Part shown: positions 16,344 to 60,780 of the stretch, one piece after another | Layout: every line of letters begins with the position of its first letter | Numbering within the stretch: the first letter of the stretch is position 1 | Source: Psammoneis japonica | Taxonomy: Eukaryota | Assembly (NCBI GenBank): GCA_008632985.1 | Contig: QPGO01000090.1 | Location: 1-64,000 of the forward strand | Length of the DNA stretch: 64,000 nucleotides | Direction of reading: 5' to 3' | The notes under the pieces: generated by a model | The model's database searches: none | Seen by the model: only the letters and a program-made list of their open reading frames with translations | What the model was told of the DNA's origin: nothing | Program-made: the position numbers and the translations under genes

Positions 16344-17576
16344 TGACAGGATTTGAACAGGATTTAGGTGCGCGCGAAATGTCGCGCGCTGTTTAGTTTA
16401 CCGCGCACAGTTTTGTGTGCTTTAGTTCCGCGCGTTCGCGCGCGATGTAGTTTGCTTTCAAGCCACAAGGCTCACAAGAATAACAACAGCAGCCCGATTG
16501 TACCGACTCACACGTCTTTCGGCTCCTGCAACGGTCTCTGAGCGGAGACTCATCTGCCATTTAGACAGCAGCAAGGAGTTGTTGTTTGAATTCTTGCCAT
16601 TTGCCTCCAATTTCTGTCAGATTGACAGTCTTGCTCATTGTCAACCCATTGAGCAACCGCCATCGTCGTTGTTGATTTGCCAATGACGCCATTTCAATTC
16701 TACGTGGACCTCCGTGTGTGTTCTACATACATCGGCAAGTCTACGCGCATTCAACACCAGGGCATCGGCAGGAAGTTAACGTCACCGTCAAGTCTCCTTG
16801 CCGCTGGATGTCTGGATTGATCACACTGCCTTTGATCGCTGAAGACACACATTCAACGGGTCATGTCCAAGTCTGTCCTTGATCCTCATCCCTTGACATG
16901 CCTGTTCATCGGTCAACGGTCAAGAACCCTGTGTGTTCAAGGATCTTCGTCGCTGAAGACACACACATGTGCACACATCTTCACGGCCAAGAACCTGCAC
17001 CCACTCTTCGGACTGCGGTTTTGCTGCCACTCTACAAGCACACCGAGTCCATTGTGCCTGATCCACCCCGGACTGCTGGTGCTCTGCAGTTCTGCTGGGT
17101 CCACGAGGACGACTGTGAGAGCAAGCAGCCGTGATTGCAGCCTGCGTTGGGGCGAGGGTGCTTTCCCGCGTTTGTTCGTTCGTCCACAGCGCCCAATGCC
17201 TGCGTCAACTGGCCAGCCTGATCGGGAAATCCAACCGATGTAAAATGAGAACGGTTCGGGGGTCTTGTCCACCTCCAGTCAGCTTGCCTGCAGGGGTTTA
17301 CAACCCGCCACTCCGCTCGCAAGCAACCCAAAGCGCCGCCAGCTGCGGGTTCGGACGTGCCGGCACAACTCTACGGACCGGACAGGAAGTTTAGCACTCA
17401 ACAACGAACGGGATAGCACAGCCCGGCGACTTCTGATTTTAAGATGGTCCAAGATTTCAAGTCAAGTCTAGCTCAAGTCAAGTCTTTTTCAAGCCAAGTT
17501 CCAAGTCAAAACTCCGAGTCAAGATCGCGCTCTAGATTGGTTCCTGTCTTTCGTTTCTACTGCACCGTCCTCCGTC

Positions 17577-19717
17577 ATGGTTCTCACGCGACAGCAACAA
17601 ACCGAAAGCTTCAAATGCATTCTAGGCACTGTGCTCAATCAAGACGATGACAGCCCTCTTCATTCTGCCCTCTCCATCAACGGGATTGAATCGTGCGAGG
17701 AATTGTTCACGTTCTTGCCCACCCAAATTGACGCCCTCACTTACAGAGACGGCGCCAATGTGGTGCCTTTGCCACGGACCCACAGAAACCTCCTAGCAGC
17801 TTTGATCAGCTTCTACTTTGTCAAAGTTTGCAATGGTGATGATGTGACCAATGAACCCCAGTTGCTCACACCCGAGGAATTTCGCAACTGCCGCCTTGGT
17901 CCGGACTGCTTGACCTCTCTAGCCACTGGCGCAGCACCCTCCGCACCTGTGCCGAGTCCCTTGCCATCCAAACCAGATGAACCCAGTGCCATTTTGACAC
18001 CAGCCTTGCACTGTGCCGCCACTCAGGTGTCCCCTGGAAGTGGTGTCAGTCGCGCCCCGCATGTCTTGACCAACCCGCCTGCAAGCAACCTCGGCCCAGT
18101 GCAGGATTGCAGCCCTTGCACAGGCCCGCACTTCGAGACCAGTTGGGACACTCCACCCATGGCTTCCAAAGCTGCAGTCTTTGCACCCCGCAAACCACGT
18201 GCTGCCAACCTCCACGTGTCGACTTCTGTCGCTGTCACCCTTCACAGTCTTCGTTTGGGAAGTGATGGAGGTGACAACTTGCTTCTTGCATCTCCTGATG
18301 GGGAGCCTCCTTTTCCCGTCATTGAATCTGTTCACAACAGTTCAACCGGTTCATCAGATGGGGAGTTCAGGACATCCAAGCAGCTTTGTTGTCTTCGGAT
18401 CCTCCAAGCATCGCACCATGAGACCAGGCCTCCTGATTGGATGCCCCAAGTCTCGCACCTCGAGACTGGGCCTCCTGATTGGATGCCCCAAGTCTCGTAC
18501 CTCGAGACTGGGCCTCCTGATTGGATGCCCCAAGTCTCGTACCTTGAGACTGGGCCTCCTGATTGGATGCCCCTGATTGGATGCCCCAAGTCTCGTGCCT
18601 CGAGACCAGGTCTCCTGATTGGATGCCTCAAGTCTCGTACCTCGAGACTGGGCCTCCTGATTGGATGCCTCAAGTCTCGTACCTCGAGACCAGGCCTCCT
18701 GGTTGGATGCCCCAAGTCTCGCACCTCGAGACTGGGCCTCCTGATTGGATGCCCCAAGTCTCATACCTCGAGACTGGGCCTCCTGATTGGATGCCTCAAG
18801 TCTCACACCTCGAGACTGGGCCTCCTGATTGGATGCCCCAAGTCTCGTACCTTGAGACCAGGTCTCCTGATTGGATGTCCCAAGTCTCGCACCTCGAGAC
18901 TGGGCCTCCTGATTGGATGCCTCAAGTCTCGTGCCTCGAGACTGGGCCTCCTGATTGGATGCCCCAAGTGTCGTACATCGAGACTGGGCCTCCTGATCGG
19001 ATGACCCAAGTCTCGTGCCTTGAGGCCAGGCCTCCCAACTGGACTCTCCACGTCTCATGCCTCAAGACCGGGCCTCCCAATTGGATCCTCCACGTCTCAT
19101 GCCTCAAGACTCGGCCTCCGGATTGGATCCCTCAAGTCTTGCGCCACGAGACTCGGCCTCCTGATTGGATCCCCCAAGTCTCGCACCTCAAGACTTGGCC
19201 TCCTGGTTGGATCCCCGAAGACTCGTGTCACAACACTGGCAAGTCCTTTTGGATCCCAGAAGTCTTGCAGCACGGGACTGGTTGCCCCAATCAGACATCT
19301 GCAGCCTTGCACCACAAGATGTCTTGCTCCAATCCGATCCCCGAAGGCTTGCACCTTGAGACTCGTTTCTCCAATTGGATCAGTCTCTCAGGAGATGCAG
19401 TCGGACTGGTGGAACACAAGACCACTGCTTGTGCCTTTGAACTGATGCTTGCTCTGTTCCCCGAGTCGTGCAAACGCCATGCCGCCTGCAATGTTGCCCC
19501 ACCGTTCAACATTGTCAACCAGACCAAGCTTTGCTCCTTCCATTGCAAGCGCGGATGTGGAATCCCACAAGATCCCAAGTGTGCCTTGAGCTTTGAAAAG
19601 CACAATGGCATCTGCAATTGGGGAGATGCAGCTCATCTCAAGATGACCCACTTGGAGAATGCAACGTTGCTCTCGGATCTTGATCCTTTCTTGTCTCCTC
19701 ATGTTTTGGTGCTTTGA
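17577..19717 (+). pseudogene. Gag-like ORF with 14-aa repeats and a short pol remnant, frameshifted near 18570
   Basis: N-terminus MVLTRQQQTESFKCILGTVLNQDDDSPLHSAL resembles diatom Copia Gag N-termini (from memory). C-terminal IVNQTKLCSF..GIPQDPKCALSFEKHNGICNWGDA resembles the Copia segment just before RT. Confidence 0.6.
18420..19230 (+). repeat. 42-bp tandem repeat, about 20 units (ETGPPDWMPQVSYL)
   Basis: Consensus gagactgggcctcctgattggatgccccaagtctcgtacctc, with no spacers between units. Confidence 0.92.
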
Positions 19718-19951
19718 CTCCAAAGTTCTTTGGTCAATCCGAAGTCGAATCTGTTTCTGTGGCTCCTCAAGCAAACTGGGGAGTGACAGGATTTGAACAG
19801 GATTTGGGTGCGCGCGAAATGTTGTGTGCTGTTTAGTTTGCCGCGCACAGTTTTGTGTGCTTTGGTTCCGCGCGTTCGCGTGCGATGCAGTTTGCTTTCG
19901 AGCCACAAGGCTCACAAGAACAATGACAGCAGCCCGATCACACCGACTTGC

Positions 19952-20506
19952 GACGTGTTCCAGCTGCACGTGAACCAAATCGTGCACAAAAACGACATTT
20001 GCGCGATTTTTGCGCGGTCCCTAACTTGCGATCGAACTTTCACCACCAAAAGTGTAGATTCACACAAATGCAAATGTTTTGCAACACCAACAAGACTCGT
20101 GTGAGTGTTGCAATGTCATTGTCATTGTGCTGTCTGTGTTTTTCATTGCGCCAAAAGATTCGCAACACAACGGATGATTTTCGGTGAAAACATTGCCGTT
20201 GTTTGGATGTTGCCCAAACACATCTTTCTACGATGCCACTTGGCAGGTTTTCCACCTGCAAAAAAATCTCAGCATGAATCTGCTGACGTGCAATCAGTGT
20301 TGAGTCCACTGAGGAAGTTCATGATGCATGTCCCATGAGGATTTGAACACACCTCAAAAAACCATTTAAATGTTCACACTCTAGAAGCCCATGAAAGTCA
20401 ATCCGTCTGAGTGTTTTTGCCAAAATGCTGTGCACACTAAAATGTGCACAAATTACACTCAAAATCCGATTGTCGTTTTGTGCGTCACCTGGGACTGGAA
20501 CACGTC
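19952..20506. mobile_element. 555-bp MITE inserted in the 3' LTR
   Basis: 12-bp TIR gacgtgttccag / ctggaacacgtc. 4-bp TSD TTGC at 19948-19951 and 20507-20510. Removing it restores the 276-bp LTR. Confidence 0.88.
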
Positions 20507-20635
20507 TTGCACGTCTTTCAGCTCCTGCAACGGTCTCTGAGCGGAGACTCATCTGCCACTTAGACAGCAGTGAGGAGTTGTTGTTTGAATTCTTGCCATT
20601 TGCCTCCAATTTCTGTCACGAACTACAGCAACTAC

Positions 20636-20949
20636 CTGATTGTCATAGAAAATCTGTACGAAAATCAAAATCTGTACCTATTTTTGAGGGGCTTGAAAAA
20701 ATCTGTACCCATTCTGAACGGAAATCTGGAATCTGTACTCCAGTACAAATTTACGTAGGATGTACGTAGAACGCGCCAGGCCTACCTGGAAGGGGTTCTT
20801 CAAATCTGAGAAAATCCAAAGCCAGTTTTAGCAAAATCAATGAAAATCTATACTTTTTGAGAATCTGTACCTATTTCTCCGGAAGCCTTGAAAATCTGTA
20901 GCTATTTTTTAAACCAAAATCTGGAGTACAGATTTTCTATGATAATCAG
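20636..20949. mobile_element. 314-bp MITE with 24-bp TIRs and internal AAAATCTGTAC repeats
   Basis: Left end ctgattgtcatagaaaatctgtac; right end reverse-complemented ctgattatcatagaaaatctgtac. Flanked by TAC on both sides. About eight copies or variants of aaaatctgtac. Confidence 0.8.
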
Positions 20950-29051: not shown

Positions 29052-29313
29052 GTCAGCATAACAGAGAGATAATCTCATACTCCAAGCTATGATAGGGCCT
29101 TACTCTAGTTGTCGCCATACATAGAGTATGGTAGTATGTGGGAACAAAAAAGGCCTTCGATTTATTCGTCGGCATGAGCTTCGTAGAGCTTCAGTAGTTT
29201 CTTTACATACGCAGAATGCACGTTTCGTTCAATACAAAGAGTAATGTACTACATACTGTGAGGTAAACCAGTGGGATGTGTGTAGATTAGACAAAACGTT
29301 TCCCGCGCAATCT

Positions 29314-32300
29314 GGTAAAGATTTCATGCTCGTGGCTGGTTAACGACAAGCCCATAGCCCAATCTCTTTGTCTGACTTCGAGCCAAAGTAAGCTAAATGG
29401 TTAGTGTAAATCGTTAAGTGTCATTTCCACTTCGACACAAAGAAAGCTAAATGGTTAGTGTAAATCGTTAAGTGTCATTTCCACTTCCATACAAAGACAG
29501 CTAAATGCTTAACGGTAGTGGTCAGATTTCAAAATCTGAGCAATACAGAAATGTCAATGATGAATAAGGATTTTAGATTGCTTCTGCCGTAAATATCATT
29601 ACGCCAATGCCACTAATGAATTCACAAATGAATTTGTATTCCATCCTTTTCCTGAACTTTGATCTATCGGCATTTTCGATACGAGTGCTCGACGCGATGA
29701 CAATGAGGCATGCTTGTATGTGTCATGGCCATAAGCTGTGAGGCGTACCGTCACATTTGGATTGAACTCGGGGATCTTGATGTCGAAAGTAGCCATTTGT
29801 TTGACATTCGTGATTTTTCATCGCCCACAAACTGGGATTTCAACTGAGTCGAGTTGATGTTGGACGTGTTTCAAAGCACTGCGTTTGATGAAACAATTGA
29901 GGGCTCTGGAATTATGGCATTTTATGCCATGGAGACTTAAAACAGCAAATGGGTTGACAATCAAGCAGTGATCGGGTTTGCCAACATTTCCAAAAATGTG
30001 ACAACAAAAGTTGCATCACTCAACAACCAACAACATCTCAAGAGATGGAAACAAGAAAAGTGACTCCTCTTTGCACTTGAATTAAAAGAGACAACAATGC
30101 ACAACAAACATTTGAGAAGGACAAGAAGCTCTTGAATGCATGGAACCAGAAGAGAGTCAATGAATCGCTCTTGTTTTGAACCTCTTGACCTGTTCTGTCC
30201 ATGATGGTGGTTGGCTGAAAGGTTGGTGGTGGTTTTTTTGTGTGACTTGCAGCTTGAGGCATGTTGATGCATGAACACATGGCCCATGTGTGGTGTCACC
30301 TTTGGAAAGTGCCACTTGTGGAGCTTGCGTGGACAACTCTCTGTGCTCAAGCTTTGTCCGCCAAATGCTCCATCAAAGTCCAGATGATGCTGCCACATCC
30401 CACCCGACCATTGACACAAAACAGTTCTTGCAAAATGTTGTTGCCCATTTCCCTCTTCCTCTGCAGAGCAGCCCTCTTGGTGACAGTGCTGCCCACATGC
30501 CAGAATGTGCTCAAGAATGCTTTCCATTTTGCCAGCAAAGATGCCCAACGTGGGGCTGTGTGGGCTCGAATCTCTCTCAAGACAAGCTGACATTTGTGCC
30601 TGGCACTGGCGGCAATGCTCAGCCCTCCTTCCTGTTTGACTTCCCAGGAGTGTGCCCAGATCTCCTGCGTGCTGAGTGGCTCAACCACAAGAGTCGCTGT
30701 CTTTGTCAGTTTTGTCAGCAGGATGTGCCAAGGCTGCTCTGGCCATGTGTGCGCAAGGACAGCTGCGACAGTGCTTTCTGCTGTCAGCAAAGAGTGTGAG
30801 CTGGCTGGACTGCCCAACCCCACACTTCACAGCTCCTTGGCAGTCACTCCAAATCAAGTGCCAACTTGGGGTCAACCGCACCTGGCTGGCTGCAATGCAA
30901 AGACAGCTGTGGCAGCACTTTGTGACAACAAAGAGAGTGCGAGCTGGCTGGGCTCCCAACCCCACACTTCACAGCCCCTCAGCACTGGATCCCAATCAAA
31001 TGCCAACTTGGGGCCAATGGCTGTGAAGCCATCATTGCAAATCCCTGTGCCTGCCCCCTCACACAGCTTTGCACAGGGTCAACATTTGTGGCCTTTGCAA
31101 GATGGGCCCTGGCTGGCTGCTGGCTCTTCAGCCACACGGCTTGCACAACAAGCCACCACAACACAGAGCACTGTGGGGTGAGTGCAGCACAGCCCAAACA
31201 AGCACACCATGCTGAGATCACCCAGAGTTGGCTGCTGTCCTGGGGCTCCATTCAAAGCTGGGCTGGGCTGCTTGGCTCCTTGGTGTGCAGCACATGCTTG
31301 GCATCACACTCTTGTTGCCAAGCAGCCACATGGCATGTGCCCACCATTTGTGCCTGCAACAGTGACCCCAGCCACAAAGAAGCCAACAAAAAGTTGAACC
31401 TGGTTTTGTGGTTGAAGAGTGAAGAAACTGTGAGTGAAGTTTGGTTCAAGATTTGTTGGCAATGCCAAGTGGGCAACCAAAGAGAGGCGCCAAAAATGGC
31501 CATTCTCGCTCATTTCTCAAGAGGAGCTTGCGCTCATGATGCAGGGTCTGAAGCAAGCACCAGCCAAGACAACAGTTTTTTCTCTCTGCCCCACTTAAAA
31601 CACAGCCTTTGAGTCAATGTGGTGCTCCTTCAACAACTCACGCACACTGGGAAGAGCAGCTGGAGCCAGGGCAGCTGGCCTGGCAGGGCTTGGCTGACAC
31701 CCAAGCTGGGCTGCTCAGCCTGGTGGCACACACTCAGTGCCACATTGTCACCCTCCTGCAACTGCAATGTGCCCCACTCTTTGCACCTGCAGCAACCACC
31801 CTGGATCAAAAGAAGCCAGTGCAACTCTGGCCATGGTTGCATGGTCAATTGTGTGTGTGTGTTCAACGGTTGATTCCCCTCTTTTTTTCTCTTTTCCTTT
31901 AACCGGCCACGAACATGAAAAAATTGCCCAATCTGGTAAAGATTTCATGCTCGTGGCTGGTTAACGACAAGCCCATAGCCCAATCTCTTTGTCTGACTTC
32001 GAGCCAAAGTAAGCTAAATGGTTAGTGTAAATCGTTAAGTGTCATTTCCACTTCGACACAAAGAAAGCTAAATGGTTAGTGTAAATCGTTAAGTGTCATT
32101 TCCACTTCCATACAAAGACAGCTAAATGCTTAACGGTAGTGGTCAGATTTCAAAATCTGAGCAATACAGAAATGTCAATGATGAATAAGGATTTTAGATT
32201 GCTTCTGCCGTAAATATCATTACGCCAATGCCACTAATGAATTCACAAATGAATTTGTATTCCATCCTTTTCCTGAACTTTGATCTATCGGCATTTTCGA

Positions 32301-41300: not shown

Positions 41301-42408
41301 CACACTTCACAGCTCCTTGGCAGTTACTCCAAATCAAGTGCCAACTTGGGGTCAACCGCACCTGGCTGGCTGCAATGCAAAGACAGCTGTGGCAGCACTT
41401 TGTGACAACAAAGAGAGTGCGAGCTGGCTGGGCTCCCAACCCCACACTTCACAGCCCCTCAGCACTGGATCCCAATCAAATGCCAACTTGGGGCCAATGG
41501 CTGTGAAGCCATCATTGCAAATCCCTGTGCCTGCCCCCTCACACAGCTTTGCACAGGGTCAACATTTGTGGCCTTTGCAAGATGGGCCCTGGCTGGCTGC
41601 TGGCTCTTCAGCCACACGGCTTGCACAACAAGCCACCACAACACAGAGCACTGTGGGGTGAGTGCAGCACAGCCCAAACAAGCACACCATGCTGAGATCA
41701 CCCAGAGTTGGCTGCTGTCCTGGGGCTCCATTCAAAGCTGGGCTGGGCTGCTTGGCTCCTTGGTGTGCAGCACATGCTTGGCATCACACTCTTGTTGCCA
41801 AGCAGCCACATGGCATGTGCCCACCATTTGTGCCTGCAACAGTGACCCCAGCCACAAAGAAGCCAACAAAAAGTTGAACCTGGTTTTGTGGTTGAAGAGT
41901 GAAGAAACTGTGAGTGAAGTTTGGTTCAAGATTTGTTGGCAATGCCAAGTGGGCAACCAAAGAGAGGCGCCAAAAATGGCCATTCTCGCTCATTTCTCAA
42001 GAGGAGCTTGCGCTCATGATGCAGGGTCTGAAGCAAGCACCAGCCAAGACAACAGTTTTTTCTCTCTGCCCCACTTAAAACACAGCCTTTGAGTCAATGT
42101 GGTGCTCCTTCAACAACTCACGCACACTGGGAAGAGCAGCTGGAGCCAGGGCAGCTGGCCTGGCAGGGCTTGGCTGACACCCAAGCTGGGCTGCTCAGCC
42201 TGGTGGCACACACTCAGTGCCACATTGTCACCCTCCTGCAACTGCAATGTGCCCCACTCTTTGCACCTGCAGCAACCACCCTGGATCAAAAGAAGCCAGT
42301 GCAACTCTGGCCATGGTTGCATGGTCAATTGTGTGTGTGTGTTCAACGGTTGATTCCCCTCTTTTTTTCTCTTTTCCTTTAACCGGCCACGAACATGAAA
42401 AAATTGCC
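29314..42408. mobile_element. Head-to-tail array of five 2.6-kb non-autonomous TIR elements (MULE/IS256-like or Merlin-like ends)
   Basis: Copies at 29314-31928, 31935-34549, 34556-37170, 37177-39787 and 39794-42408. Imperfect 30-bp TIRs: ggtaaagatttcatgctcgtggctggttaa versus ggcaattttttcatgttcgtggccggttaa. One 8-bp TSD CGCAATCT at 29306-29313 and 42409-42416. CAATCT spacer at all four junctions. Confidence 0.9.
29390..29510 (+). repeat. Subterminal direct repeats near the left TIR (present in every unit)
   Basis: aagctaaatggttagtgtaaatcgttaagtgtcatttccactt occurs twice, plus a partial third copy. Confidence 0.85.
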
Positions 42409-42568
42409 CGCAATCTTGCCCGTGAATGAACACGCATGTGAGCTTCGAAAGATCTCGAAGATGACGCCGAACACAAACGAATCTCGCTCGACGGCCATTT
42501 CATTCATAAAATACTCCGGGGAACCGCATCTATCCAATCTTGCTTGAAACAACAGCAACAGCATCGAC

Positions 42569-49289: not shown

Positions 49290-52200
49290 CCTGCCCTGTT
49301 CCCACGGTGCGTTCTCTCGCCAGCCTGCAACCACTCTAGCCAGAGGGTCATCCATTTCCTCAGGGAATTCCTTCTTGTTTGGCCCTGAATTTCCTTGGAC
49401 AAGGAAAGAAAAGGAATTGTCGTGATTTGCCGTGTGGTTTGTTTTGATGTGGTCCTTTCACCCAGTGGTGGCAGATTTGTCTGGAGCCTGTGGCTGCCAA
49501 AACACTTTGTGCATTGCACTTGACGGGTGAGGCAGACGCCGATGGGGGGCATGTTGCCAGATGAGAAAAAATTGGTTGTTGTGATGTGCTGCATGCGAGC
49601 AAGTTGCAAGCAACACACGGTGCTTTCGTCCAGCAGTTGACTCATCTGGTCACAGGTGGGAAGAGCCCACAGCTGCCAAAACAGTTTGAACACTGCAGCA
49701 ACTGCACTCAATGAGCAAGGTGGGTGCCATTGGGGGGCATGTTCTTGAGGACAAAGAGGCGAGCTTCCAGGGTCTCTTCCAGCATGTTCTCTCCAACCAA
49801 GCAACCAAGTCCACAACAAGCTTGAGCTGGGAGAAAAGACATTCAACAGGAGATGCACTTGAGACTTGAGCCAGAGCAACAAGACAAACAGCACTTTGCA
49901 AAATCTTCAAAGTGTGGCTTGTGGCCCCACCACAAGCATCAAGCTCACCTTGCCTTCTCAGACAGATCCTCCTCCCAGGTCCCAGGACTTGCACTTCACT
50001 TCATGAGCCAATGCTTTTCTTCAGCTTTCTTCTGGTTCATTTCTGCCAGATTCTTGTTGTGAGATGTGCTGCTCCTTCAACAGAGCCCCAAAATCACATG
50101 TTTGGAGCATTTGCTGCTTGAGTCAACCTGCCTGCTTGATTGCACAGTCCTCCAATGAATTCATTGGCAAAGTGACAGAGCCTGGTGGGTTGAGCATGCT
50201 TGCCACTTCAATTGCCTTTCAAACCTCACAAATTTTGCCATTGTTGGTGCCAAAACACATCTCCTTGTGATGCTCATGAACTGGCCCAATGACGGTTTTG
50301 CCATGGTTGATGAAATTTGCCTTGCTCTCACCTCCTCCTGCTTCATTTTGAAACATTTTTGTCTTGAACTGCCACCTTCTCAAGAAGCTCTTTTTCTGTG
50401 TCTTCCACCTCCTTGTCAAGATTCTCCAGTGCATCTGCTTCTTCAACAACAGGGTGTGGTGGTGCTGCCACAGGAGTGGCAACTTCTTTGTGACAGCAAG
50501 CATGAGCACCCAATGCTGATGGTGACCACAGCCCCTGCCACCTGTCTCAGCCTCACAGACCTCTGCAGATGCTCCATTTGCTGCTGCTGCTGTGGCAGCA
50601 TCTCTTGCTTCTTCTTTTTGCTCAAGTTTGTTGGCGAGTTCCACAATCTGCAAATCAAACTCACCACAGGGGCAACAAGCTCTTCCACCCTTTCTGCCAA
50701 CTTTTTGAGAAAAGGATGTGGGGTCCTGTTTTCAACAGTGGACGCCTTGAGTTTCAGCAACTCCTCATGAGCAACAAAGGTTGGGGTGTCACCTTCAAGA
50801 ACACGTGCAGCCAATGCAAAAAATGACACCCAGCATCCACTGCAGCGGCGGTTTCAATGATTGCCCTTGCCACGGTTGTGTCATTGGTGCTTTGGTGCTT
50901 GATTGCCTTTTTTGTGACTTGGTGGAACAATCTCTTGCAGCTCATTTCACTTCTGCTGCAAGGATCTTCTCAAGAAACAATTTGGCATGCTGATGGGCCA
51001 TCTCCCACTCAACCCACCAACAAATGCCACCCTCTTCACCAATGGCTTGACACCAAACTCCTTCAGGAATGACAGATGAGCATTTCCTTGGTGAGGCTGA
51101 AAGACTTTGGTTGGAAGCTGTCTTGCTTTTTTTCCAACGTGTGGTCCATTGGAGCTCTTCCAGTTGCTGCAGACAGAGTGGAGACTTTCTCAATGCTGCT
51201 TGTTTTTGCACTTCTTGAGTTTTGCATGGTGATCTGTTTTGTTTTGCCTTTTTTTTGATCCATGAACATGCCATGACATGTTGCAGAAAGCTTGTTTGGG
51301 AAGTCTTCCTCCATCAATTGTTTCTGGCAGTTGGCTTTCTTTTTAGTGCTGCCATTCTTGCAGCATTTCTTCTTCAGCTGAATGCCGCCAGCAGTGGAAG
51401 AGGAGCCTTGGGGAAGCTTTCTTGTCTTGCGTTTCTGACCAGCTTTGTGCTTCATTGATCCAGGGCACACATGCAGGGTCATCTTTGTCCTCATTGTTGC
51501 TGCCATCAACACTGCTGTGACAGTCCTTTCCCATGCCAGTGCGGGTGCCAGCAGCAAGGTCAAGAGCTGAAGAAACTGCCACTGCACACTTCTGGTGCAA
51601 TTTTTCCTTGATCCAGGCACACATGCAGGGTCATCTTTGTCCTCATTGTGTTGCTGTCATCAACCCTGCTGTGAGAGTCCTTTCTCCCATGCCAGTGCCC
51701 ATGCCAGTGCAAGTGCCAGCAGCAAGGTCAAGAGCTGAAAAACTGCCACTGCACACTTCTGGTGCAATTGCTCCTTGTCAAGGTGTGGCTGCAGCACATG
51801 AGCAGCTGCTTCAACAACTGCAGTCCATTTTCCCAACAATGAAAATCTTGCATGTTTTGGTCACATGTTTTCAGTTCTCTCTTCGAGTGCTCAACAACAT
51901 TTCTCAAGGTCTGAACAGCTCTCTTCGAGTTGTTGTTCACACCAAGGAGCTTCTTGTTGTGGCGTGAATCTGCTGCTGCTGCTTGAGCATCTTCAAAATT
52001 TTCCTCCTCCTGCAAGGAAACCCAAGGCCATTGAGACTTCAGCTTTTGGCTTCTTCTTCTGGGTCCTTGGGGCAGACAACCACAATGTTTTCATCAGCAC
52101 AACATGTCATGACTGTGGCAAAAATGCCTTTGTTGGGAGCAACAGACACCATGCCTTTTGTCATCACCGCTCCTCCCAACATTGACTTGTGACTTCCTGT

Positions 52201-53750
52201 TGAACTTGCACTGTCAACAAAGAGCTCCTTGAGCTTCCTTTGGCTGGACTCCCGCATTGTCCATTGTTGACAGTGGATGTCACTGTGAGTTGTGAGTGAT
52301 GTGCATGATGATTGATGTTGTGAGGTTGCCAAAGTGGTGTGCAAAAAAGTGTCATGCTAAAAAGCTGCACAACTGCTGATGTCACAATCTGCACAAGATC
52401 TGTGCAGGATCTCACTGCAAAGATTTTTCCTTGTCTTCTTCCTTGTCTTGGGCTGACCACTTCTTTGTGACAGAAAACCCAACCCACAACTGATGCAGTG
52501 CTGTCTTGTGATGGAAAAGTGAGAACAAATCTGAAAACAGCTGCACGCATGTCAAAGGGCATTTTTTGTTTTTCTCTCTCATTTCCTCTTTTTGTTTGTT
52601 GCTGACAATGACCAGGGGTGTGTTTGGCCATGAGAAGGAGATTTACACAGACATGACCACACACTCTCAAAATGGGCAGTGTCTTTGCTTTGCACAAATG
52701 GCTTGAGTTGGTGCAGATTTTGCAAGGAGTTGTGTTTGTCTCTGACTCTGGCTTGACACGCAGCTGCTTCATGGGGCACCAAGTTTGAGGGGGCAGCACA
52801 AATGCTGGGGCAGCTGAGTGTGCCTGCATGCTGAGGCACTTTGAGATTTGCAAAATTTCATGTCACAGAGTTCAACACTGAGATGTGGTCCACCCAAAGA
52901 TCTGGTTGCTGCAGCCATGCCAACCATCTCTGGCTGCAATGCCAGCGTCTTCTTGGCTGGCAAGAAGCTCCTCTGCACACTGGTGCTGCCAACTCAGCCA
53001 CCTCACAGCTTCAGCATCATCCAGCCCATGACCACAAGGGTGCAAACACTCTGTCACTCCAAGAGCACCTGGCGCCATTGCAGAAAGCAGCTTGCAAGCT
53101 CCAAGGACCCCAAATGTGTGCTGCATGACAGAACCATGGTTGCTTGGCCACATCACTTTTTTCAGCTGGGTTGCTGTTTTGGCTGATTCCAGTTTGGTTT
53201 TTCTGCTCAGGAAGCTTCCATCTGTGCCATGCCTCAGTGTTTGTGTTTTAGCCACACACAAGCCAAAATCCCACTTGATTGTGGCCACTTGTTTTGCTCC
53301 CATCAGGGAACAACCATTTGTTCTGGTTGTCTCTGCATTGTTCTCCATTGAGAGTGCTTTTTGCAACTTCGCTTGGTGGTGCATGTAAAATGCTGTTGGA
53401 GATTTGCTGTCAGATTGTTGGACAAGCATGGCTTTTAAGACAAGAGAGACCTCATGTTGTCACACCATTCATGGCAATCTTCAGTGTCATGGGTCAACAA
53501 TGTTTTTTTGACGTTTGGGGTGAAAATCAAGATTTCCCACAAAGCAATGTGTGGTTGGCACTGCCACAAATCATGTTCAATTACAATTACAGGCTCAGAT
53601 TACTTCTAGGGGATGGGCCAGTCAACATGTTGCATGTTGCAAAGGACAGGCACCAACTCATGTCTGCTGATTCAAATGTGTGGTGTCACCATTCCTGTCG
53701 AGGTCAGTGTGAATTGACACAAGAGGGGGCTTCCTTGCATGGCAAAAACT
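49290..53750. mobile_element. Degenerate TpA/CpG-depleted transposon block
   Basis: By eye, 50041-50340 has no TA and one CG. Contains a hAT relic and an internal ~145-bp direct repeat (about 51456-51600 and 51607-51770). Confidence 0.65.
49700..51070 (-). pseudogene. hAT transposase remnant
   Basis: Fragments in different frames: GGICWWVEWEM (RW motif region), ETAAAVDAG..LEGDTP, and a dimerisation-domain-like AVCLVALAQVSSASPVECLFSQLKLVVD. Confidence 0.6.
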
Positions 53751-55364: not shown

Positions 55365-55566
55365 CTTTTCTCACAGAATTTTTTTCTTTCAGTCAAACCG
55401 TCTATTTTAGAACCAACAAGAACTGTCTCCTTGATGGCACACTGGTTACAGTAGTAATAGCAAATAGGAGTGGTAGCAATAAGCAAGAAAGAGCTTGATG
55501 CTTGATAGCCACATCACACATCACATCCAGCATCCAGATCTGAGTTCTGAGTTCGCGGTGTTGGCG

Positions 55567-56896
55567 TCAGCAGTTGCCAGAGCTCAGAGCTCGTAAAATA
55601 GATAGGAAGGTTGCTGGAATTTGGAACTGGAACACTGGACGTACTGTCTTCCATTCATCTTCAATCTCAAGCGTCAAAAAGAATGAATGCTCATGGCGAC
55701 AAGCTTCAAACTGCTGCACCAGCTGCTCGCTCTGTCGAAAAGTCAGAGATGGCCGGTGGCGCTGGGTTGAAGTTTGCAGTGGCGCACAGGAAGATGAATT
55801 CCACAATTGGTTTCACCAACTGATGTCACTGCCAATCGCAACCCCATGAAGTTTTGTTTGCCAGTCACGACCATCATCTTCGGGGTCCCATTTGTCTATC
55901 GCACGCTGCGCAGCAACAGCATCAAAGACTTCAAGTCCCTCCGGCAGCTGAATTTCGCCATCGTGCTGCCATTCCAAAAGAGGGCAACTGAGAATGACAC
56001 GAGATGCCAATGTCGGACCAGGCAAAGCAAGAGTGTCAGTAGAAGAAAGGATGCATTGAGTGAATTCCATCAACTTCTTGTTGCTGAAAGGAAGCATCTC
56101 TTCCACGTTCGAACACATCGCTGAGCCAAAACCAGGTCCAGATGGATCAACATCACCGCGGCCGAGAAAGCCTCATTGAAGTGCAAATCGTCCCCTGATG
56201 CCATGGCACCTTCTGCAAATGCCACGAGAGCCATGTTGAAAGCCAAAGCCGTGCGTTTTGGCATTGGAGGAAGGATTCCATTACCCGGATGACCAAGACC
56301 GAGTGACCAATTGCCTTGGATTGCACCAGCTGCACTTGGCATGTTGCAAGGATTAGCAGCATCAGCAAAGTTCAGGTGTGGGCACATGTTTGTGACCATG
56401 GCAGACAGGAACTGAACCATTTTCACACACTTGACATGAGTTGGAAGGGTCTTGTACGTTTCCTGGTGGCAAGGATCCAATTCGGCAAGATCTTGATTGG
56501 CAGGGTGATGACAGTCCTCCAGATCGGGTTTCTCGGCACATGTGCAAATCCGCTTGGAAGTGGGCACGTGGACTTTGCCACAATGCGAGTGGACGTGAGA
56601 TGACAGAGTTGCTCCAATGCATCAAGCAATGGTTGCAAAAGGCTGTCACCACAACCAATGCAGCTTGCATGACATCCCTTGTTGATGGCTCCCAGTGCCC
56701 CTGCATCTTCCCAGCTCAAAAAACTTGCAATGTTTTCAAACAATCCGTGCTCCAATGGGACAAGAACCACAGCTGCAGCATCAGCACCATGAGCCGCCTT
56801 GTTGTTGTGTTTGATGCTGGTGCTGAGGCAGACGTCCTTCTTCTGCTGCTTTTTCCTGCGGTTCTTGCAGAGACTCATGGGGCGGGAACGCTTCAT
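55567..56896 (-). pseudogene. Degraded F-box-like host gene
   Basis: LEHGLFENIASFLSWEDAGALGAINKGC resembles an F-box. The frame continues through frameshifts and a stop. TpA-depleted. Confidence 0.45.
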
Positions 56897-57362
56897 CTTT
56901 CAATGCAACAAAGGTGACAATGAAGAGCGCAGTGATGGATGCAACCAATCACCAAGAAGGCCGCAAGGCAAAGACTCTGTCAACAGCAACACACACCGCA
57001 ACCGGCAAGATCATGGATCATGGTCGCAACTCGCACAATGACCATGGACAACAGGACACATGGACAGACGTCACAGGTGGGAAAAAATCCATCCACGGGG
57101 GCATCATCGACTGCCAGTCTGGTCTGCGGAAAAAATCCTTTTGAACCCAGCATTCATTTTGCTTCATCAAAACGAAGCCATTGCGATCGTTGTCTTGTTC
57201 TTCCAAACCTCAAGAGTGCAATAAATGGCACAAGCAGTTGGCCGAAGCAACAACCACCCTTCGCGCACGCATTGTGTGGCAAATGGTCTGTCTTGGAAGC
57301 AAAGGGCGAGAGATGAGCAGTGCATCACCATTTCCTCAGCAGTGCACATGACAACTGCCTCA

Positions 57363-60300
57363 TGACAGAAATTGAAGGCAAATGGCAAGAACTCAAACAA
57401 CAACTCCTTGCTGCTGTCTAAATGGCAGATGAGTCTCCGCTCAGATTTGTCACAGGAGCCGAAAGACGTGCAAGTCGGCACAATCGGGCCACTGTTGTTG
57501 TTCTTGTGAGCCTTGTGGCTCGAAAGCAAACTGCATCGCGCGCGAACGCGCGGAACCAAAGCACACAAAACTGTGCGCGGCAAACTGAACAGCGTGCGAC
57601 ATGTCGCACGCACCCAAATCCTGTTCAAATCCTGTCACTCCCCAGTTTGCTTGAGGAGTCACAGAAACAGATTTGACTTCGGATTGACCAAAGAACTTTG
57701 GAGTCAAAGCACCAAAACATGAGGAGACAAGAAAGGATCAGGATCCAAGAGCAACGTTGCATTCTCCAAGTGGGTCATCTTGAGATGAGCTGCGTCTCCC
57801 CAATTGTAGATGCCGTTGTGCTTTTCAAAGCTCAAGGCACACTTGGAATCTTGTGGGATTCCACATCCGCACTTGCAATGGAAGGAGCAAAGCTTGGTCT
57901 GGTTGACAATGTTGAACGGTGGGGCAACATTGCAGGACAATGCAAACAAGTTGACATCGCCTTCACTTCCTGAGCGAAGGTCATAAAGACTGATGGCCGT
58001 CTGTTGGTTCTTGGGATGGTTGCCACACTGGGCTGCTGCCAGAAAAACAGAGCAGTGCTCGTGCAGGGTGGCATGGCGTTTGCACGACTCGGGGAACAGA
58101 GCAAGCATGAGTTCAAAGGCACAAGCGGTGGTCTTGTGTTCCACCAATCCGATTGCAAGCTCAGCTGCATCTCCTGAGAGACTGATCCAATTGGAGAAAC
58201 GAGTCTCAAGGTGCAAGCCTTCGGGGATTGGATTGGAGCAAGACATCTTGTGGTGCAAGGCTGCAGATGTCTGACTGGGGCAACCAGTCCCATGCTGCAA
58301 CACTTCTGGGATCCAACAGGACTTGCCAGTCTTGTGACATGAGTCTTCGGGGATCCAATCAGGAGGCCAAGTCTTGAGGTGCGAGACTTGGGGGATCCAA
58401 TCCGGAGGCCCGGTCTCGAGGCGTGAGACGTGTAGGATCTGATTGGGAGGCCCGGTCTCGAGGCACGAGATGTGGAGAGTCCAGTTGGGAGGCCTGGTCT
58501 CAAGGCACGAGACTTGGGGCATCCGATCAGGAGGCCCAGTCTCGATGTGCGACACTTGGGGCATCCAATCAGGAGGCCCAGTCTCGAGGCACGAGACTTG
58601 AGGCATCCAATCAGGAGGCCCAGTCTCGAGGTGCGAGACTTGAGGCATCCAACCAGGAGGCCCAGTCTCGAGGTGCGAGACTTGGAGCATCCAGTCAGGA
58701 GGCCTGGTCTCATGGTGCGATGCTTGGAGGATCCGAAGACAACGAAGCTGCTTGGATGTCCTGAACTCCCCATCTGATGAACCGGTTGAACTGTTGTGAA
58801 CAGATTCAATGACGGGAAAAGGAGGCTCCCCATCAGGAGATGTGAGAAGCAAGTTGTCATCTCCATCACTTCCCAAACGAAGACTGTGAAGGGTGACAGC
58901 GGTCGACATGTGGAGGTTGGCAGCACGTGGTTTGTGGGGTGCAAAGACTGCAGCTTTGGAAGCCATGGGTGGAGTGTCCCAACTGGTCTTGAAGTGCGGG
59001 CCTGTGCAAGGGCTGCAATCCTGCACTGGGCCGAGGTTGCTTGCAGGCGGGTTGGTCAAGACATGCGGGGCGCGACTGACACCACTTCCAGGGGACACCT
59101 GAGTGGCGGCACAGTGCAAGGCTGGTGTCAAAATGGCACTGGGTTCACCTGGTTTGGATGGCAAGGGACTCGGCACAGGTGCGGAGGGTGCTGCGCCAGT
59201 GGCTAGAGAGGTCAAGTGGTCCGGACCAAGGCGGCAGTTGCGAAATTCGTCGGGTGTGAGCAACTGGGGTTCATTGGTCACATCATCACCATTGCAAACT
59301 TTGACAAAGCAGAAGCTGATCAAAGCTGCCAGGAGGTTTCTGTGGGTCCGTGGCAAAGGCACTGCATTGGCGCCATCTCTGCAAGTGAGGGCGTCAATTT
59401 GGGTGGGTGAGAACGTGAACAATTCCTCGCACGATTCAATCCCATTGATGGACAGGGCAGAACAAAGAGGGCTGTCATCGTCTTGATTGAGCACAGTGCC
59501 TAGAATGTATTTGAAGCTTTCGGTTTGTTGCTGTTGCGTGAGAACCATGACGGAGGACGGTGCAGTAGAAACAAAAGACAGGAACCAATCTAGAGCGCGA
59601 TCTTGACTCGGAGTTTTGACTTGGAACTTGGCCTGAAAAAGACTTGACTTGAGCCAGACTTGACTTGAAATCTTGGACTGTCTTAAAATCAGAAGTTGCC
59701 GGGTTGTGCTGTCCCATTCGTTGTCAAGTGCTAAACTTCCCATCCAGTCCGTAGAGTTGTGCCGGCACGTCCGAACCCGCAGCTGGTGGCGCTTTGGGTT
59801 GCTTGCGAGCGGAGCAGCAGGTTGTAAACCCCTGCAGGTGAGCTGACTGGAGGTGGACAAGACCCCCGAACCGTTCTCATTTTATGTCGGTTGGATTTCC
59901 CGATCAGGCTGGCCAGTTGATGCAGGCGTCAGGCGCTGTGGACGAACGAACAAACGCAGGAAAAACACCCTCGCCCCAACGCAGGCTGCAATCACGGCTG
60001 CTTGCTCTCACAGTCGTCCTCGTGGACCTGGTGGAGCTGTGGAGTGCCAGCAGTCCGGGGCAGATCAGGTGCAATGGACTCGGCCTGCTTGTAGAGTGGC
60101 AGCAAAGCCGCAGTCCAAAGAGTGGGTACAAGTTCTTGGCCGTGAAGACGTGCACATGTGTGTGTGTCTTCAGCGACGAAGATCCTTGAATGTGCAGGGT
60201 TCTTGACCGTTGACCAATGAATGGGTGTGTCAAGGGATGAGGATCAAGGGCAGACTTGGACATGACCGTTCAACGCATGTCTTCAGCGACAAAAGGCAAT

Positions 60301-60780
60301 GTGTTCAATCCAGATGTCCAGCGACAAGTGGATTTGACGGTGATGTTAACTTCCTGCCGATGCCTGGCATTGAATGCGCGCAGACTTGCCGATGTACATA
60401 GAACACATGCGGAGATCCACGCAGAATTGAAATGGCATTGTCGGTAAATCAACGACGACCATGGCGGTTGCTCAATGGGTTGACAATGAGCAAGACTGTT
60501 AATCTGACAGAAATTGAAGGCAAATGGCAAGAATTCAAACAATGACTCCTTGCTGCTGTCTAAATGGCAGATGAGTCTCCGCTCAGAGACCGTCACAGGA
60601 GCCGAAAGACGTGTAAGTCGGTATAATCGGGCTACTGTCATTGTTCTTGTGCTCCTTGTGGCTCGAAAGCAAACTGCATCGCGCGCGAACGCGCGGAACC
60701 AAAGCACACAAAACTGTGCGCGGTAAACTAAACAGCGCGCGACATGTCGCGCGCACCTAAATCCTGTTCAAATCCTGTCA
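57363..60780 (-). mobile_element. Non-autonomous Copia (CoDi-like) LTR retroelement, copy 2
   Basis: LTRs at 60505-60780 and 57363-57637. 5-bp TSD CCTCA at 57358-57362 and 60781-60785. PPT at 57638-57648. Colinear with copy 1. Confidence 0.92.
57704..59548 (-). CDS. Gag-like ORF (614 aa) of LTR copy 2 with about nine 14-aa repeats
   Basis: Open from ATG 59548 and homologous to 17577-19717. Openness is partly expected because TpA loss removes TAA/TAG stops. Confidence 0.5.
   Translation of the reverse strand: MVLTQQQQTESFKYILGTVLNQDDDSPLCSALSINGIESCEELFTFSPTQIDALTCRDGANAVPLPRTHRNLLAALISFCFVKVCNGDDVTNEPQLLTPDEFRNCRLGPDHLTSLATGAAPSAPVPSPLPSKPGEPSAILTPALHCAATQVSPGSGVSRAPHVLTNPPASNLGPVQDCSPCTGPHFKTSWDTPPMASKAAVFAPHKPRAANLHMSTAVTLHSLRLGSDGDDNLLLTSPDGEPPFPVIESVHNSSTGSSDGEFRTSKQLRCLRILQASHHETRPPDWMLQVSHLETGPPGWMPQVSHLETGPPDWMPQVSCLETGPPDWMPQVSHIETGPPDRMPQVSCLETRPPNWTLHISCLETGPPNQILHVSRLETGPPDWIPQVSHLKTWPPDWIPEDSCHKTGKSCWIPEVLQHGTGCPSQTSAALHHKMSCSNPIPEGLHLETRFSNWISLSGDAAELAIGLVEHKTTACAFELMLALFPESCKRHATLHEHCSVFLAAAQCGNHPKNQQTAISLYDLRSGSEGDVNLFALSCNVAPPFNIVNQTKLCSFHCKCGCGIPQDSKCALSFEKHNGIYNWGDAAHLKMTHLENATLLLDPDPFLSPHVLVL

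Follow-up and report, generated by a model that had tools for sequence, protein, structure and literature searches.

The first 64,000 nucleotides of contig QPGO01000090.1 from the diatom Psammoneis japonica (hereafter, the window) carry four copies of a long terminal repeat (LTR) in which the same sites read TA in one copy, TG in another and CA in a third. This raises the question of which state is being lost, by what process, and whether the change took place in the chromosome or before the element arrived there.

Two insertions of one LTR element

The four LTRs belong to separate insertions, A and B, of one ~3.4-kb element. Each has paired LTRs and its own 5-bp target-site duplication (TSD), which differs between them:

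16344..20618, + strand: LTR element A; TA observed/expected (o/e) 0.19
16344-16619, + strand: 5' LTR of A
19784-19951 plus 20506-20618, + strand: 3' LTR of A, in two pieces around a 554-bp terminal-inverted-repeat (TIR) element
16339-16343 and 20619-20623: TSD of A, CGAAC
18397..19226, + strand: 42-bp (14-aa) tandem repeats in A; counterpart in B at 58341-58734
19952..20505, no strand assigned: MITE-like element of 554 bp in A's 3' LTR; TA o/e 0.16
57363..60780, - strand: LTR element B; TA o/e 0.16
60780-60506, - strand: 5' LTR of B
57637-57363, - strand: 3' LTR of B
60785-60781 and 57362-57358: TSD of B, TGAGG

The hallmarks of an LTR retrotransposon are present: direct LTRs with TG...CA ends (TGACAG...CTGTCA in both A and B), a 5-bp TSD and a polypurine tract before the 3' LTR (in B, a purine-rich ctggggag immediately precedes it). 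We found no Pfam domain in the internal ORFs, hence no reverse transcriptase or integrase, and no TGG-type tRNA primer-binding site after the 5' LTR; on these two sequence criteria the carrier element is classed as non-autonomous. Its ORF has an N-terminal domain of ~130 aa common to 66 unnamed protein clusters. The MITE-like element has 12-bp terminal inverted repeats (GACGTGTTCCAG) and a 5-bp TSD, CTTGC.

A first-pass annotation of the window had singled out one LTR segment, which we compared across the four copies:

16487..16516, + strand: 5' LTR of A; states CA, TGTA, CA
19927..19951, + strand: 3' LTR of A; states CA, CACA, TG; interrupted by the inserted TIR element
60608..60637, - strand: 5' LTR of B; states TA, TATA, TA
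57465..57494, - strand: 3' LTR of B; states TG, TGTG, TG

All four strings quoted by the annotation were found at these positions, shared sites do take TA, TG and CA states across the copies, and four-way LTR alignments recovered the further sites it had listed (gattTAggtg/gattTGggtg and gttTAgttTAccg/gttCAgttTGccg). Its statement that the CpGs are intact, by contrast, does not hold: these same LTRs contain eight CpG>TpG/CpA changes, each specific to a lineage, among them TCGCGCGC > TTGTGTGC in the 3' LTR of A, and CpG decay accompanies TA loss, mostly in the 3' LTRs (7 losses vs 1) and strongly in older domains.

Differences between the copies concentrate at TpA

Alignment of A with B gave 190 mismatches, 171 of them transitions, and 39 adjacent CA/TG doubles. 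Counted as unpolarised differences between the copies rather than as observed mutations, A/G differences fell at 20 of 56 purine sites after T (36%), compared with 12/378 after A and 13/426 after G (3% after either; Fisher p = 5e-14), and 8% after C. The expectation that A-to-G change would be enriched at TpA over other A contexts is borne out in this comparison, whose basis is two elements in one 64-kb window; two scans of metagenomes found nothing. Single differences were TA/TG at 12 sites and TA/CA at 8, and A and B have 136 CpGs in common. From the single differences and conserved sites, a uniform TA-loss model predicts ~3 doubles and a uniform CG-loss model ~2; both fall short of the 39 seen, and strong heterogeneity between sites or regions must therefore be assumed. 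Within the 42-bp repeats, TAC, TGC, CAC and CGC alternate at one codon from unit to unit. Units at corresponding positions in A and B mostly agree in state, indicating that these states were inherited.

These patterns bear on whether the sequence itself can be trusted. Dense modification (5mC at CpG, with TpA modified in some way) could have been read as TG/CA by a long-read caller or polisher, with the true TA and CG intact. The dinucleotides affected are the two palindromic YpR steps, miscalls would be transitions, and four 1-bp homopolymer deletions confined to one unit of a tandem array (unit 4, described below) suggest a long-read assembly with residual errors. However, opposite outcomes lie 4 bp apart in one copy pair (16968 TG/CA, 16972 CA/TG), and the directions of the doubles are interleaved (17 runs vs 19.5 expected, by hand calculation), whereas long stretches of a single direction would be expected from a strand-majority artefact. 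A context-determined miscall would match in A and B, which differ at the 39 doubles. The inherited states of the 42-bp units also speak against an artefact. Islands present once in the window are as depleted as the repeats, and Illumina sequencing of Bigelowiella natans gave the same signature, according to the available text of that report (bioRxiv 10.64898/2026.01.13.699255). We consider such an artefact quite unlikely.

TA and CG are depleted in sharply bounded domains

Depletion extends well beyond the LTRs. Sharply bounded domains comprise both LTR elements, the MITE-like element, ~2 kb of each tandem-array unit and two unannotated islands, with further TA-poor stretches beside the LTR elements:

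4390..7060, no strand assigned: TA- and CG-depleted island; 1-3 TA and 1-9 CG per 500 bp; no Pfam match
15430..16343, no strand assigned: TA-depleted stretch between an inositol-phosphate synthase gene and element A
29940..42409, no strand assigned: tandem array of five 2621-bp units; ~2 kb per unit TA- and CG-free (as at 29940-31899), ~0.6 kb normal (as at 31900-32560)
49340..53580, no strand assigned: largest TA- and CG-free island; 6 TA and 28 CG from 49501 to 53500 (4 kb)
55650..57362, no strand assigned: older TA-poor repeat, 3' flank of element B
60786..62080, no strand assigned: older TA-poor repeat, 5' flank of element B

The two flanks of B match each other (61609-62113 vs 56726-57242, 76% identity), from which B appears to be nested in an older element. 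Among 25 ORFs of the depleted islands, none gave a credible Pfam match.

Outside the domains (33,399 bp), TA, CG and CA+TG occur at 40.9, 53.1 and 148.6 per kb; in the non-LTR domains (12,424 bp) the corresponding values are 3.4, 15.8 and 219.6. TA is thus down 12-fold (TA o/e 0.05, CG o/e 0.26, CA/TG o/e 1.76), while the sum of the four YpR dinucleotides is unchanged at 243 per kb outside and 239 inside, which argues that TA and CG were converted into CA/TG rather than that the domains differ in origin. Apparent equilibrium ratios are 32.5 for (CA+TG)/(2 x TA) and 7.0 for (CA+TG)/(2 x CG). The LTR elements stand at TA o/e 0.17 while their CG o/e is still 0.68. Applying the footprint thresholds given in the available text of the B. 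natans preprint with the usual observed/expected Rho (Rho TpA <= 0.43, Rho CpA+TpG >= 1.52, at least three consecutive 1-kb windows), we found 21 of 64 1-kb windows within them and three clusters of at least three consecutive windows.

Domain edges are sharp to within tens of base pairs and coincide with element ends. At the end of A's 3' LTR, for example, there is one TA within 20455-20618, and immediately outside TAs occur at 20624, 20633, 20646 and 20657. CA and TG occur in nearly equal numbers in every domain (e.g., 435/465 and 279/265), showing strand symmetry. The distribution does not bear out the initial description of the process as repeat-targeted: TA and CG are at normal levels in 0.6 kb of the five-fold tandem unit, the two islands are single-copy within the window and yet equally depleted, and the B. 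natans target is described as single-copy in the available text. The tandem units are ~99.9% identical and possibly recent; CA/TG flips nonetheless occur among them.

Loss of TA differs between the LTRs of one element

TA counts in the 5' and 3' LTRs are 8 and 2 in element A and 8 and 1 in element B. Across the 11 columns with TA in any LTR, TA is retained at 16/22 positions in the 5' LTRs and at 3/22 in the 3' LTRs (p = 1.7e-4). The 3' LTRs have 13 TA losses and 7 CpG losses, compared with a single CpG loss in the 5' LTRs. Per ~275-bp LTR pair, 6-7 of 8 TAs were lost in the 3' LTR, against one other, non-YpR substitution in A and five in B (two transitions and three transversions). Since the 3' LTR has lost TAs that the 5' LTR of the same element keeps, at least part of the loss is post-insertion; for that part, the proposal that the change arose in the chromosome after insertion stands.

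Changes before integration could take one of two forms: avoidance of UpA and CpG driven by dinucleotide-sensing RNA defences, or ADAR/APOBEC-like editing of RNA or cDNA during retrotransposition. Retroelement editing of that kind also produces clustered transitions, and ADAR is reported to prefer a 5' U (bioRxiv 10.64898/2026.01.13.699255, available text). Low TA arriving with the insertion would explain why depletion halts exactly at element ends, and the 3' internal 2 kb, which lacks TA in A as well as in B and holds only 8 of the 39 doubles, looks as if a common source had already been depleted. Editing of pre-integration RNA or cDNA should, however, leave the two LTRs alike, and here they differ by 6 and 7 TA sites with the 3' LTR always the loser. 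The DNA-transposon-like MITE and the tandem array are depleted equally, the changes are strand-symmetric, and 0-1 TA per 500 bp is well past known selective avoidance. To our knowledge, moreover, ADAR is confined to animals. We regard a pre-integration origin as very unlikely.

TA as the state being lost

Distant homologues of the element ORF give a view of ancestry. A codon read as TAC in A but as TGC in B is Tyr in 48/66 homologues, and a CAC/TGC double codon is Tyr in 25/64 and Phe in 14/64; at both of these variable codons, the second being a CA/TG double, the alignments indicate Tyr, and with it TA, as the ancestral state. A TGC codon shared by A and B is Phe in 47/65 homologues and Tyr in 16/65. 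Tyr makes up 0.2-0.9% of the element ORFs and 0.6-5.3% of the homologues. At the eight CA/TG-dimorphic LTR columns, another LTR has TA at four and CG at none. The Tyr consensus at two codons, the 5'/3' LTR counts and the near-TA-free old domains together uphold the earlier claim that TA is the state being lost, to both TG and CA. TA can also be created, as shown by three TAs unique to A's 5' LTR that are derived under simple parsimony (TG>TA once, CA>TA twice) and by a variable TAC/TGC codon that is His in 53/65 homologues.

Those derived TAs are what would be expected if cytosine alone were mutating, with sites that began as CpG passing to TG/CA by methyl-cytosine deamination and then to TA by RIP-like C>T change at CpA. 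The eight CpG changes in the LTRs and the low CG of the old domains fit this scheme, as does one CA/TG-dimorphic position of the 42-bp repeats at which the third state is CG, not TA. But C>T change makes TA and cannot delete it, so that with TA down 12-fold RIP indices run the wrong way. The 136 conserved CpGs stand alongside 39 doubles, CG in the LTR elements is barely down when TA is already at 0.17, CG is missing from all eight dimorphic LTR columns, and at the sole informative double the homologues give Tyr, not Arg. A cytosine-only history is, in our judgement, extremely unlikely.

Comparison with known systems

The first-pass annotation had concluded that no described system does this. 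An April 2026 preprint does report de novo TpA>TpG/CpA hypermutation, in the rhizarian chlorarachniophyte B. natans (bioRxiv 10.64898/2026.01.13.699255). According to its available text, of the 231 mutations that Illumina-sequenced mutation-accumulation lines gave in two integrated viral regions, 230 were A>G or T>C, all at TpA, at ~1000-fold the background rate, episodic between lines and with GC>AT nearly absent in targets; long-term clusters show depletion of TpA together with enrichment of CpA+TpG, and low-TpA coding sequences are enriched for reverse-transcriptase and DDE domains. Our literature search found TpA hypermutation reported for B. natans and no report for a diatom.

The two cases share TpA>TpG/CpA change on both strands in sharply delimited foreign or silent regions, lasting TpA-depleted, CpA+TpG-enriched clusters, and effects on transposon-type sequences. 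They differ in that P. japonica, a stramenopile, preserves a fossil footprint, whereas B. natans provides de novo mutations; the targets here are an LTR element, a MITE-like element, a tandem array and unannotated islands rather than integrated viral DNA, and depletion here is near-saturated (TA o/e 0.05, vs 0.45 in the B. natans NCLDV region). The near-absence of GC>AT does not extend to the window, where CpG>TpG/CpA is frequent in LTRs and domains; these CpG changes may be a separate, superimposed process. CpG is co-depleted here, and the word CpG is absent from the main text of the preprint. The 5'/3' LTR asymmetry is also visible here, unlike in the B. natans report as available.

Fungal RIP, which acts as C>T at CpA, is likewise a dinucleotide-biased transition hypermutation of transposons that leaves a compositional scar and inactivated elements. 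RIP enriches TpA and depletes CpA/TpG, however, whereas in the window TpA is erased and CpA/TpG enriched. E. coli very-short-patch repair, which depletes CTAG, is a precedent for methylation-linked repair driving T>C at a TA-containing word as a side effect, but it is bacterial, tetranucleotide-specific and genome-wide, and depletion here is confined to domains. Diatom transposons are reported to be CG-methylated through DNMT5 (PMC9998398, available text), and 5mC deamination would account for the CG>TG/CA part of the pattern, namely the CG o/e of the old domains, the polarised CG>TG/CA changes in the LTRs, CA>CG>TG flips and a CAA/CGA codon that is Arg in 41/65 homologues (Arg>Gln). It cannot take away TpA, whose loss here outpaces that of CpG.

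A probable TpA-directed mutator

We think it likely that a real, TpA-directed mutational process acted after integration and was regionally confined. In this model the adenine of 5'-TA, on whichever strand, would undergo an A:T>G:C transition, which leaves TpG or CpA in place of TpA. DNA derived from transposons, along with other nuclear DNA that is silenced or looks foreign, would be hit after integration, until almost every TA had gone and YpR steps were nearly all CA/TG. CpG in the same domains would decay to TpG/CpA more slowly than TA, by ordinary 5-methylcytosine deamination in methylated transposons or possibly by a second activity of the same enzyme. By analogy, this would be the same kind of process as the de novo hypermutation of B. 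natans.

As to the chemistry, a DNA deaminase, ADAT2/TadA-like or otherwise, may turn the adenine of 5'-TA into inosine and may be guided by chromatin state or small RNA; adenine deamination seems to us perhaps half as likely as the process itself. DNA activity is reported for amphioxus BjADAT2, of the ADAT2/ADAT3 family (PMC10354150), and for Trypanosoma ADAT2, as cited in bioRxiv 10.64898/2026.01.13.699255. According to the available text of these sources, members of the family can act on A as well as on C in DNA, and in the natural tRNA substrate the edited A follows a U; a natural role in genome defence is not among the functions demonstrated there. In principle such an enzyme could yield both TA>TG and CG>TG.

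A real TpA mutator need not be a deaminase, an alternative that concerns chemistry only and so overlaps with the process we favour. Candidates are error-prone patch repair of polymerase-eta type (WA>WG), triggered by T:G or U:G mismatches in methylated DNA, and oxidised thymine (5hmU/5fU) at TpA mispairing with G. TA and CpG losses coincide in the same LTRs and domains, as they should if A:T mutations are driven by the processing of deaminated 5mC; thymine, like 5mC, is also a 5-methylpyrimidine in a palindromic YpR step. The polymerase-eta signature is WA>WG, however, and ApA sites are spared here to the same degree as GpA. TA is lost ahead of CpG within the LTR elements, no account of 5hmU in diatoms turned up in our literature search, and the B. 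natans authors prefer an ADAT2-like deaminase, on sequence and structure prediction only according to the available text. We view a non-deaminase chemistry as possible but doubtful.

A broader scenario would make this an old genome defence of diatoms and chlorarachniophytes. A single chromatin- or RNA-guided ADAT2/TadA-type DNA deaminase, acting on A at 5'-TA and C at CpG, would erase both palindromic YpR steps from invading DNA until CA/TG remain, with an active 5' LTR temporarily protected: a SAR-wide mirror image of fungal RIP. Taken as a whole, we hold this scenario to be unlikely.

Implications

Transposons treated in this way would lose Tyr, Ile and stop codons and so escape profile searches, as the 25 ORFs above warn for annotation. 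In genomes of this kind, dating by LTR divergence would go badly astray if it took no account of TpA and CpG hypermutability. If the sequence is correct, the window preserves, to saturation, the fossil trace of an A:T>G:C mutator specific to TpA and directed at diatom mobile DNA, in a second, distant lineage after the sole 2026 Bigelowiella report. If true, what looked like a peculiarity of one species would become a candidate for a widespread eukaryotic genome defence running in the opposite direction to RIP, and there would be a natural DNA adenine-editing activity to seek. Transformable model species exist among diatoms, which would make both the enzyme and its targeting genetically testable.

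Two LTR retroelement insertions carry the variable segments

The four segments in which the first-pass annotation saw TpA→TpG/CpA hypermutation were found as written, all within copies of a ~3.4-kb element that occurs twice in the window in opposite orientation. In both copies, A and B, terminal direct repeats of ~276 bp start with TGACAG and finish with CTGTCA, and a purine-rich tract (ctggggag) lies immediately 5' of the 3' repeat. The 5-bp target-site duplication (TSD) differs between the copies, which together with the LTR structure identifies them as two independent LTR retroelement insertions. Tandem repeats of 42 bp lie in the interior, along with a long open frame in which no Pfam domain was found, and the element is therefore non-autonomous.

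Elements A and B and associated features
16344-20618, + strand: element A, TSD CGAAC
60780-57363, - strand: element B, TSD TGAGG
17545-18015 (+) in A, 58800-59881 (-) in B: open frame of the element, beginning with a ~130-aa domain
18397-19226 in A, 58341-58734 in B: 14-aa (42-bp) repeats, …SxLETGPPDWMPQV
19952-20505: MITE-like element, 554 bp, perfect 12-bp TIRs GACGTGTTCCAG and 5-bp duplication CTTGC
56726-57242 and 61609-62113: direct repeats flanking B, ~510 bp, 76% identity

The MITE-like element interrupts the 3' LTR of A, and because both copies of its CTTGC duplication have the TG state, that TA>TG change is older than the insertion. The ~510-bp direct repeats suggest that B is nested in an older element, which seems to have been TA-poor before B landed there; this repeat pair aligns too poorly to be used.

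An exhaustive protein search found the ~130-aa domain (pattern MVLT.QQ...SPL...ID.LTY...PLP...RNLL) in 66 distant protein clusters, all unnamed and derived from environmental assemblies; the best match has E 2e-13. There too it is mostly N-terminal, and it may be a Gag-like domain belonging to diatom LTR elements. Searches with the element ORF yielded no near-length homologue, only sub-threshold Atlas matches (0.81-0.82) and, in a protein-guided metagenome scan, 96 pattern matches with none confirmed, and an exact 22-mer from the LTR start hit no locus in the metagenome contigs. No Pfam family was found among 12 homologues scanned and no name among 8 looked up. Tyrosine accounts for 0.2-0.9% of residues in the element frames versus 0.6-5.3% in the homologues.

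TpA-dependent substitution between the two copies

Over 3,166 aligned positions, A and B differ at 190, and 171 of these mismatches are transitions. We tabulated the pairs by YpR step (TA, CG, CA or TG) and the A/G differences by 5' neighbour.

Differences between A and B
CG in both: 136
CG versus TG or CA: 44
TA in both: 18
TA versus TG or CA: 20
CA versus TG, both bases different: 39
CG versus TA: 0
A/G differences after T: 20/56 sites
A/G differences after C: 44/529 sites
A/G differences after A: 12/378 sites
A/G differences after G: 13/426 sites

The pair counts and the dependence on the 5' neighbour (T versus A and G combined, Fisher p = 5e-14) establish that the TpA effect claimed in the first-pass annotation is real and that CpG decay is also present. 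Its further statement that interleaved CpGs are intact is true of the quoted 30-nt stretch alone: eight lineage-specific CpG>TpG/CpA changes lie in the same LTRs, three of them adjacent in the 3' LTR of A.

Direction and timing of TA loss

The LTR elements, whose LTR pairs are still recognisable, have observed/expected ratios of 0.17 for TA and 0.68 for CG, compared with 0.05 and 0.26 in islands that are no longer recognisable, indicating that TA vanishes over time and does so more quickly than CG. A RIP-type C>T process would give the opposite trend.

The LTR pairs provide a second line of evidence. Both LTRs of one insertion are identical at the start, and the 5' and 3' LTRs now contain 8 and 2 TAs in A and 8 and 1 in B, so at least these losses occurred after insertion. 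Across the 11 columns with TA in any LTR, retention is 16/22 in 5' LTRs versus 3/22 in 3' LTRs (p = 1.7e-4). CpG losses are likewise biased, with seven in 3' LTRs and one in 5' LTRs; whatever marks the 3' LTR promotes loss of both TA and CpG. Eight LTR columns are CA/TG-dimorphic, and TA appears as a third state in four of them and CG in none.

To polarize changes with a protein outgroup, we aligned the 66 distant homologues to the element frame, where six codons show YpR-type differences between A and B.

Codon states in A and B and residues in the homologues
A TAC, B TGC: Tyr 48/66; TA ancestral
A TGC, B CAC: Tyr 25 and Phe 14 of 64; CA/TG double from TA
A CGA, B CAA: Arg 41/65; CpG decay
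A TGC, B TAC: His 53/65; may reflect a CA→TA→TG route
Two remaining codons: homologue consensus uninformative

At a TGC codon common to A and B, the homologues have Phe (47/65) or Tyr (16/65). The central proposal of the first-pass annotation, loss of TA to TG or CA in chromosomal DNA, is supported by composition, LTR pairs and protein outgroups. The 42-bp repeats were rejected as a polarity test, since all four states are present and such arrays expand via block duplication: one codon varies among units between His, Cys, Tyr and Arg (CAC/TGC/TAC/CGC), and a second position alternates between TGG, CAG and CGG.

Sharply bounded depleted domains across the window

A 500-bp composition profile showed that TA-depleted domains extend far beyond the LTRs, and their edges are sharp on a scale of tens of bases. 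At the end of the 3' LTR of A, a single TA is left in the final 160 bp, and in the adjoining flank TAs follow at 20624, 20633, 20646 and 20657.

Depleted domains
~4390-7060
15430-20618: takes in element A with its TIR-element insertion
29188-42409: tandem array of five 2621-bp units, ~99.9% identical, ~2 kb depleted per unit
49340-53580
55650-62080: takes in B nested in the older repeat

Dinucleotide content inside and outside the domains
TA per 500 bp: 0-3 in domains, ~20 outside
CG per 500 bp: 1-10 in domains (LTR elements ~20-25), ~25 outside
CA+TG per 500 bp: 110-125 in domains, ~75 outside
Pooled per kb, outside (33,399 bp): TA 40.9, CG 53.1, CA+TG 148.6
Pooled per kb, non-LTR domains (12,424 bp): TA 3.4, CG 15.8, CA+TG 219.6

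Summed over the four YpR steps, density is nearly constant (243 per kb outside versus 239 in non-LTR domains), as predicted if TA and CG are converted into CA/TG through transitions. CA and TG counts are nearly equal in every domain, pointing to a strand-symmetric process. The surviving TAs are less often in an ATA/TAT context within domains (0.11) than outside (0.27), which hints at a wider motif. Translations of the islands are rich in His, Cys, Gln and Trp, unlike proteins, and a Pfam search of 25 domain ORFs at E <= 1 returned only weak matches below cut-offs, none credible; the whole window gave no Rfam or tRNA match.

Judging from its genes, which are intron-poor, we take the window to be diatom nuclear genome DNA; it does not come from Bigelowiella.

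Genes
13880-15337, - strand: inositol-3-phosphate synthase, diatom-like; closest named relatives are pennate diatoms (Cylindrotheca 76%, Nitzschia 75%, Seminavis 67%)
26913-29051, + strand: HA-domain protein, 712-aa frame with five helicase-associated domains (HA, PF03457)
53966-54832, - strand: DUF2499 protein

Separately, 11826-12467 contains 24-, 30- and 42-bp tandem repeats within long open frames that overlap on the two strands, neither with a Pfam match, and composition at 12001-12500 is the reverse of the depleted domains (TA o/e 2.08, CA/TG o/e 0.43).

Each tandem-array unit combines ~2 kb free of TA and CG with ~0.6 kb of normal composition (for example 31900-32560, which has 54-bp repeats); the array has no Rfam, tRNA or Pfam match. 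A CA/TG flip distinguishes otherwise ~99.9% identical units, one unit shows CA>TA, and some differ by TG versus CG. Four 1-bp homopolymer deletions confined to unit 4 suggest a long-read assembly, and transition miscalls can arise from modified bases, so the depletion might be an assembly artefact of modified bases miscalled in long reads. We consider this improbable: opposite outcomes are intermixed within a few bases in the same A/B pair, A and B differ in state where the local context is identical, matching 42-bp units in the two elements are mostly in the same state, and a preprint reports the same signature in Illumina data from another alga, Bigelowiella natans (bioRxiv 10.64898/2026.01.13.699255).

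Excess CA/TG double differences

By hand arithmetic from the conserved and singly different A/B sites, the number of visible CA/TG doubles expected under a uniform model is ~3 if they come from TA or ~2 if they come from CG, versus 39 observed. They are unevenly placed, with 31 of the 39 in the 5' 1.5 kb, where TAs persist, and few in the 3' 2 kb, which is TA-free in A and B alike; rates must therefore vary strongly by region and time. Hand calculations gave no significant strand-coordinated clustering of the doubles (17 runs versus 19.5 expected) and, for the 3' LTR of B, six TG versus one CA (two-sided binomial ~0.13), a skew on which we base nothing.

Flips also occur within single LTRs: a CA>TG change is private to the 3' LTR of A, and a TG>CA change is private to the 5' LTR of B, together with CT>AG. 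The latter, at 60650-60651 (alignment columns 129-130), reads GGAGCA versus GGCTCA in the three other LTRs, an adjacent double transversion in which the dinucleotide is reverse-complemented, as in CA/TG flips. We considered a concerted event, such as a 2-bp inversion, behind the flips, including this CT>AG. Our preferred reading of the CA/TG flips is two steps via a short-lived TA or CG; the CG-intermediate route is known from human adjacent double substitutions. Three TAs unique to the 5' LTR of A are derived under simple parsimony, but parallel loss elsewhere is likelier than TA gain, as TA loss is ~30-fold faster than gain, estimated as (CA+TG)/(2 x TA) = 32.5 in saturated domains with equilibrium assumed.

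Relation to known systems

Together, these observations confirm the hypermutation signature and extend it beyond the LTRs, and a real TpA-directed mutational process acting after integration probably made the pattern. That the responsible agent is an adenine deaminase we rate perhaps half as likely as the process itself; the deaminase and the targeting of repeats proposed in the first-pass annotation are both still inferences. In diatoms, transposons are reported to carry CG methylation through DNMT5 (PMC9998398), and an amphioxus ADAT2 is reported to act on A as well as C in DNA, deaminating either base (PMC10354150).

The first-pass annotation knew of no described system, a statement overtaken by the preprint, dated 14 April 2026, on TpA hypermutation in B. 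natans mutation-accumulation lines (bioRxiv 10.64898/2026.01.13.699255), the sole description that we found in the literature; we found none on diatoms. Among diatom papers, the consulted portions of PMC2806351 hold no relevant passage on substitutions or dinucleotides, and on dinucleotides those of PMC4504042 hold only a note about nucleosome positioning. In those lines, 231 of 302 nuclear mutations lay in two regions, one of an integrated giant virus and one of a virophage. Nearly all of them (230 of 231) were A>G or T>C changes, every one at TpA, and arose at a rate of ~6e-7 per site per generation, with only 11 of 15 lines affected (bioRxiv 10.64898/2026.01.13.699255). The B. natans genome contains 124 TpA-depleted, CpA+TpG-enriched clusters, its low-TpA coding sequences are enriched in reverse-transcriptase and DDE domains, and an ADAT2-like DNA adenine deaminase is proposed from sequence and predicted structure only (same preprint). 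By the preprint's footprint criteria, 21 of 64 1-kb windows pass here, with three clusters, each made up of three or more windows. That text, in the portion available, mentions neither CpG, LTRs nor diatoms; relative to it, our window adds near-saturation, CpG co-depletion and sparing of the 5' LTR. On the present analysis, we would file the process in this window as the same kind as B. natans TpA hypermutation, in a different eukaryotic supergroup lineage.
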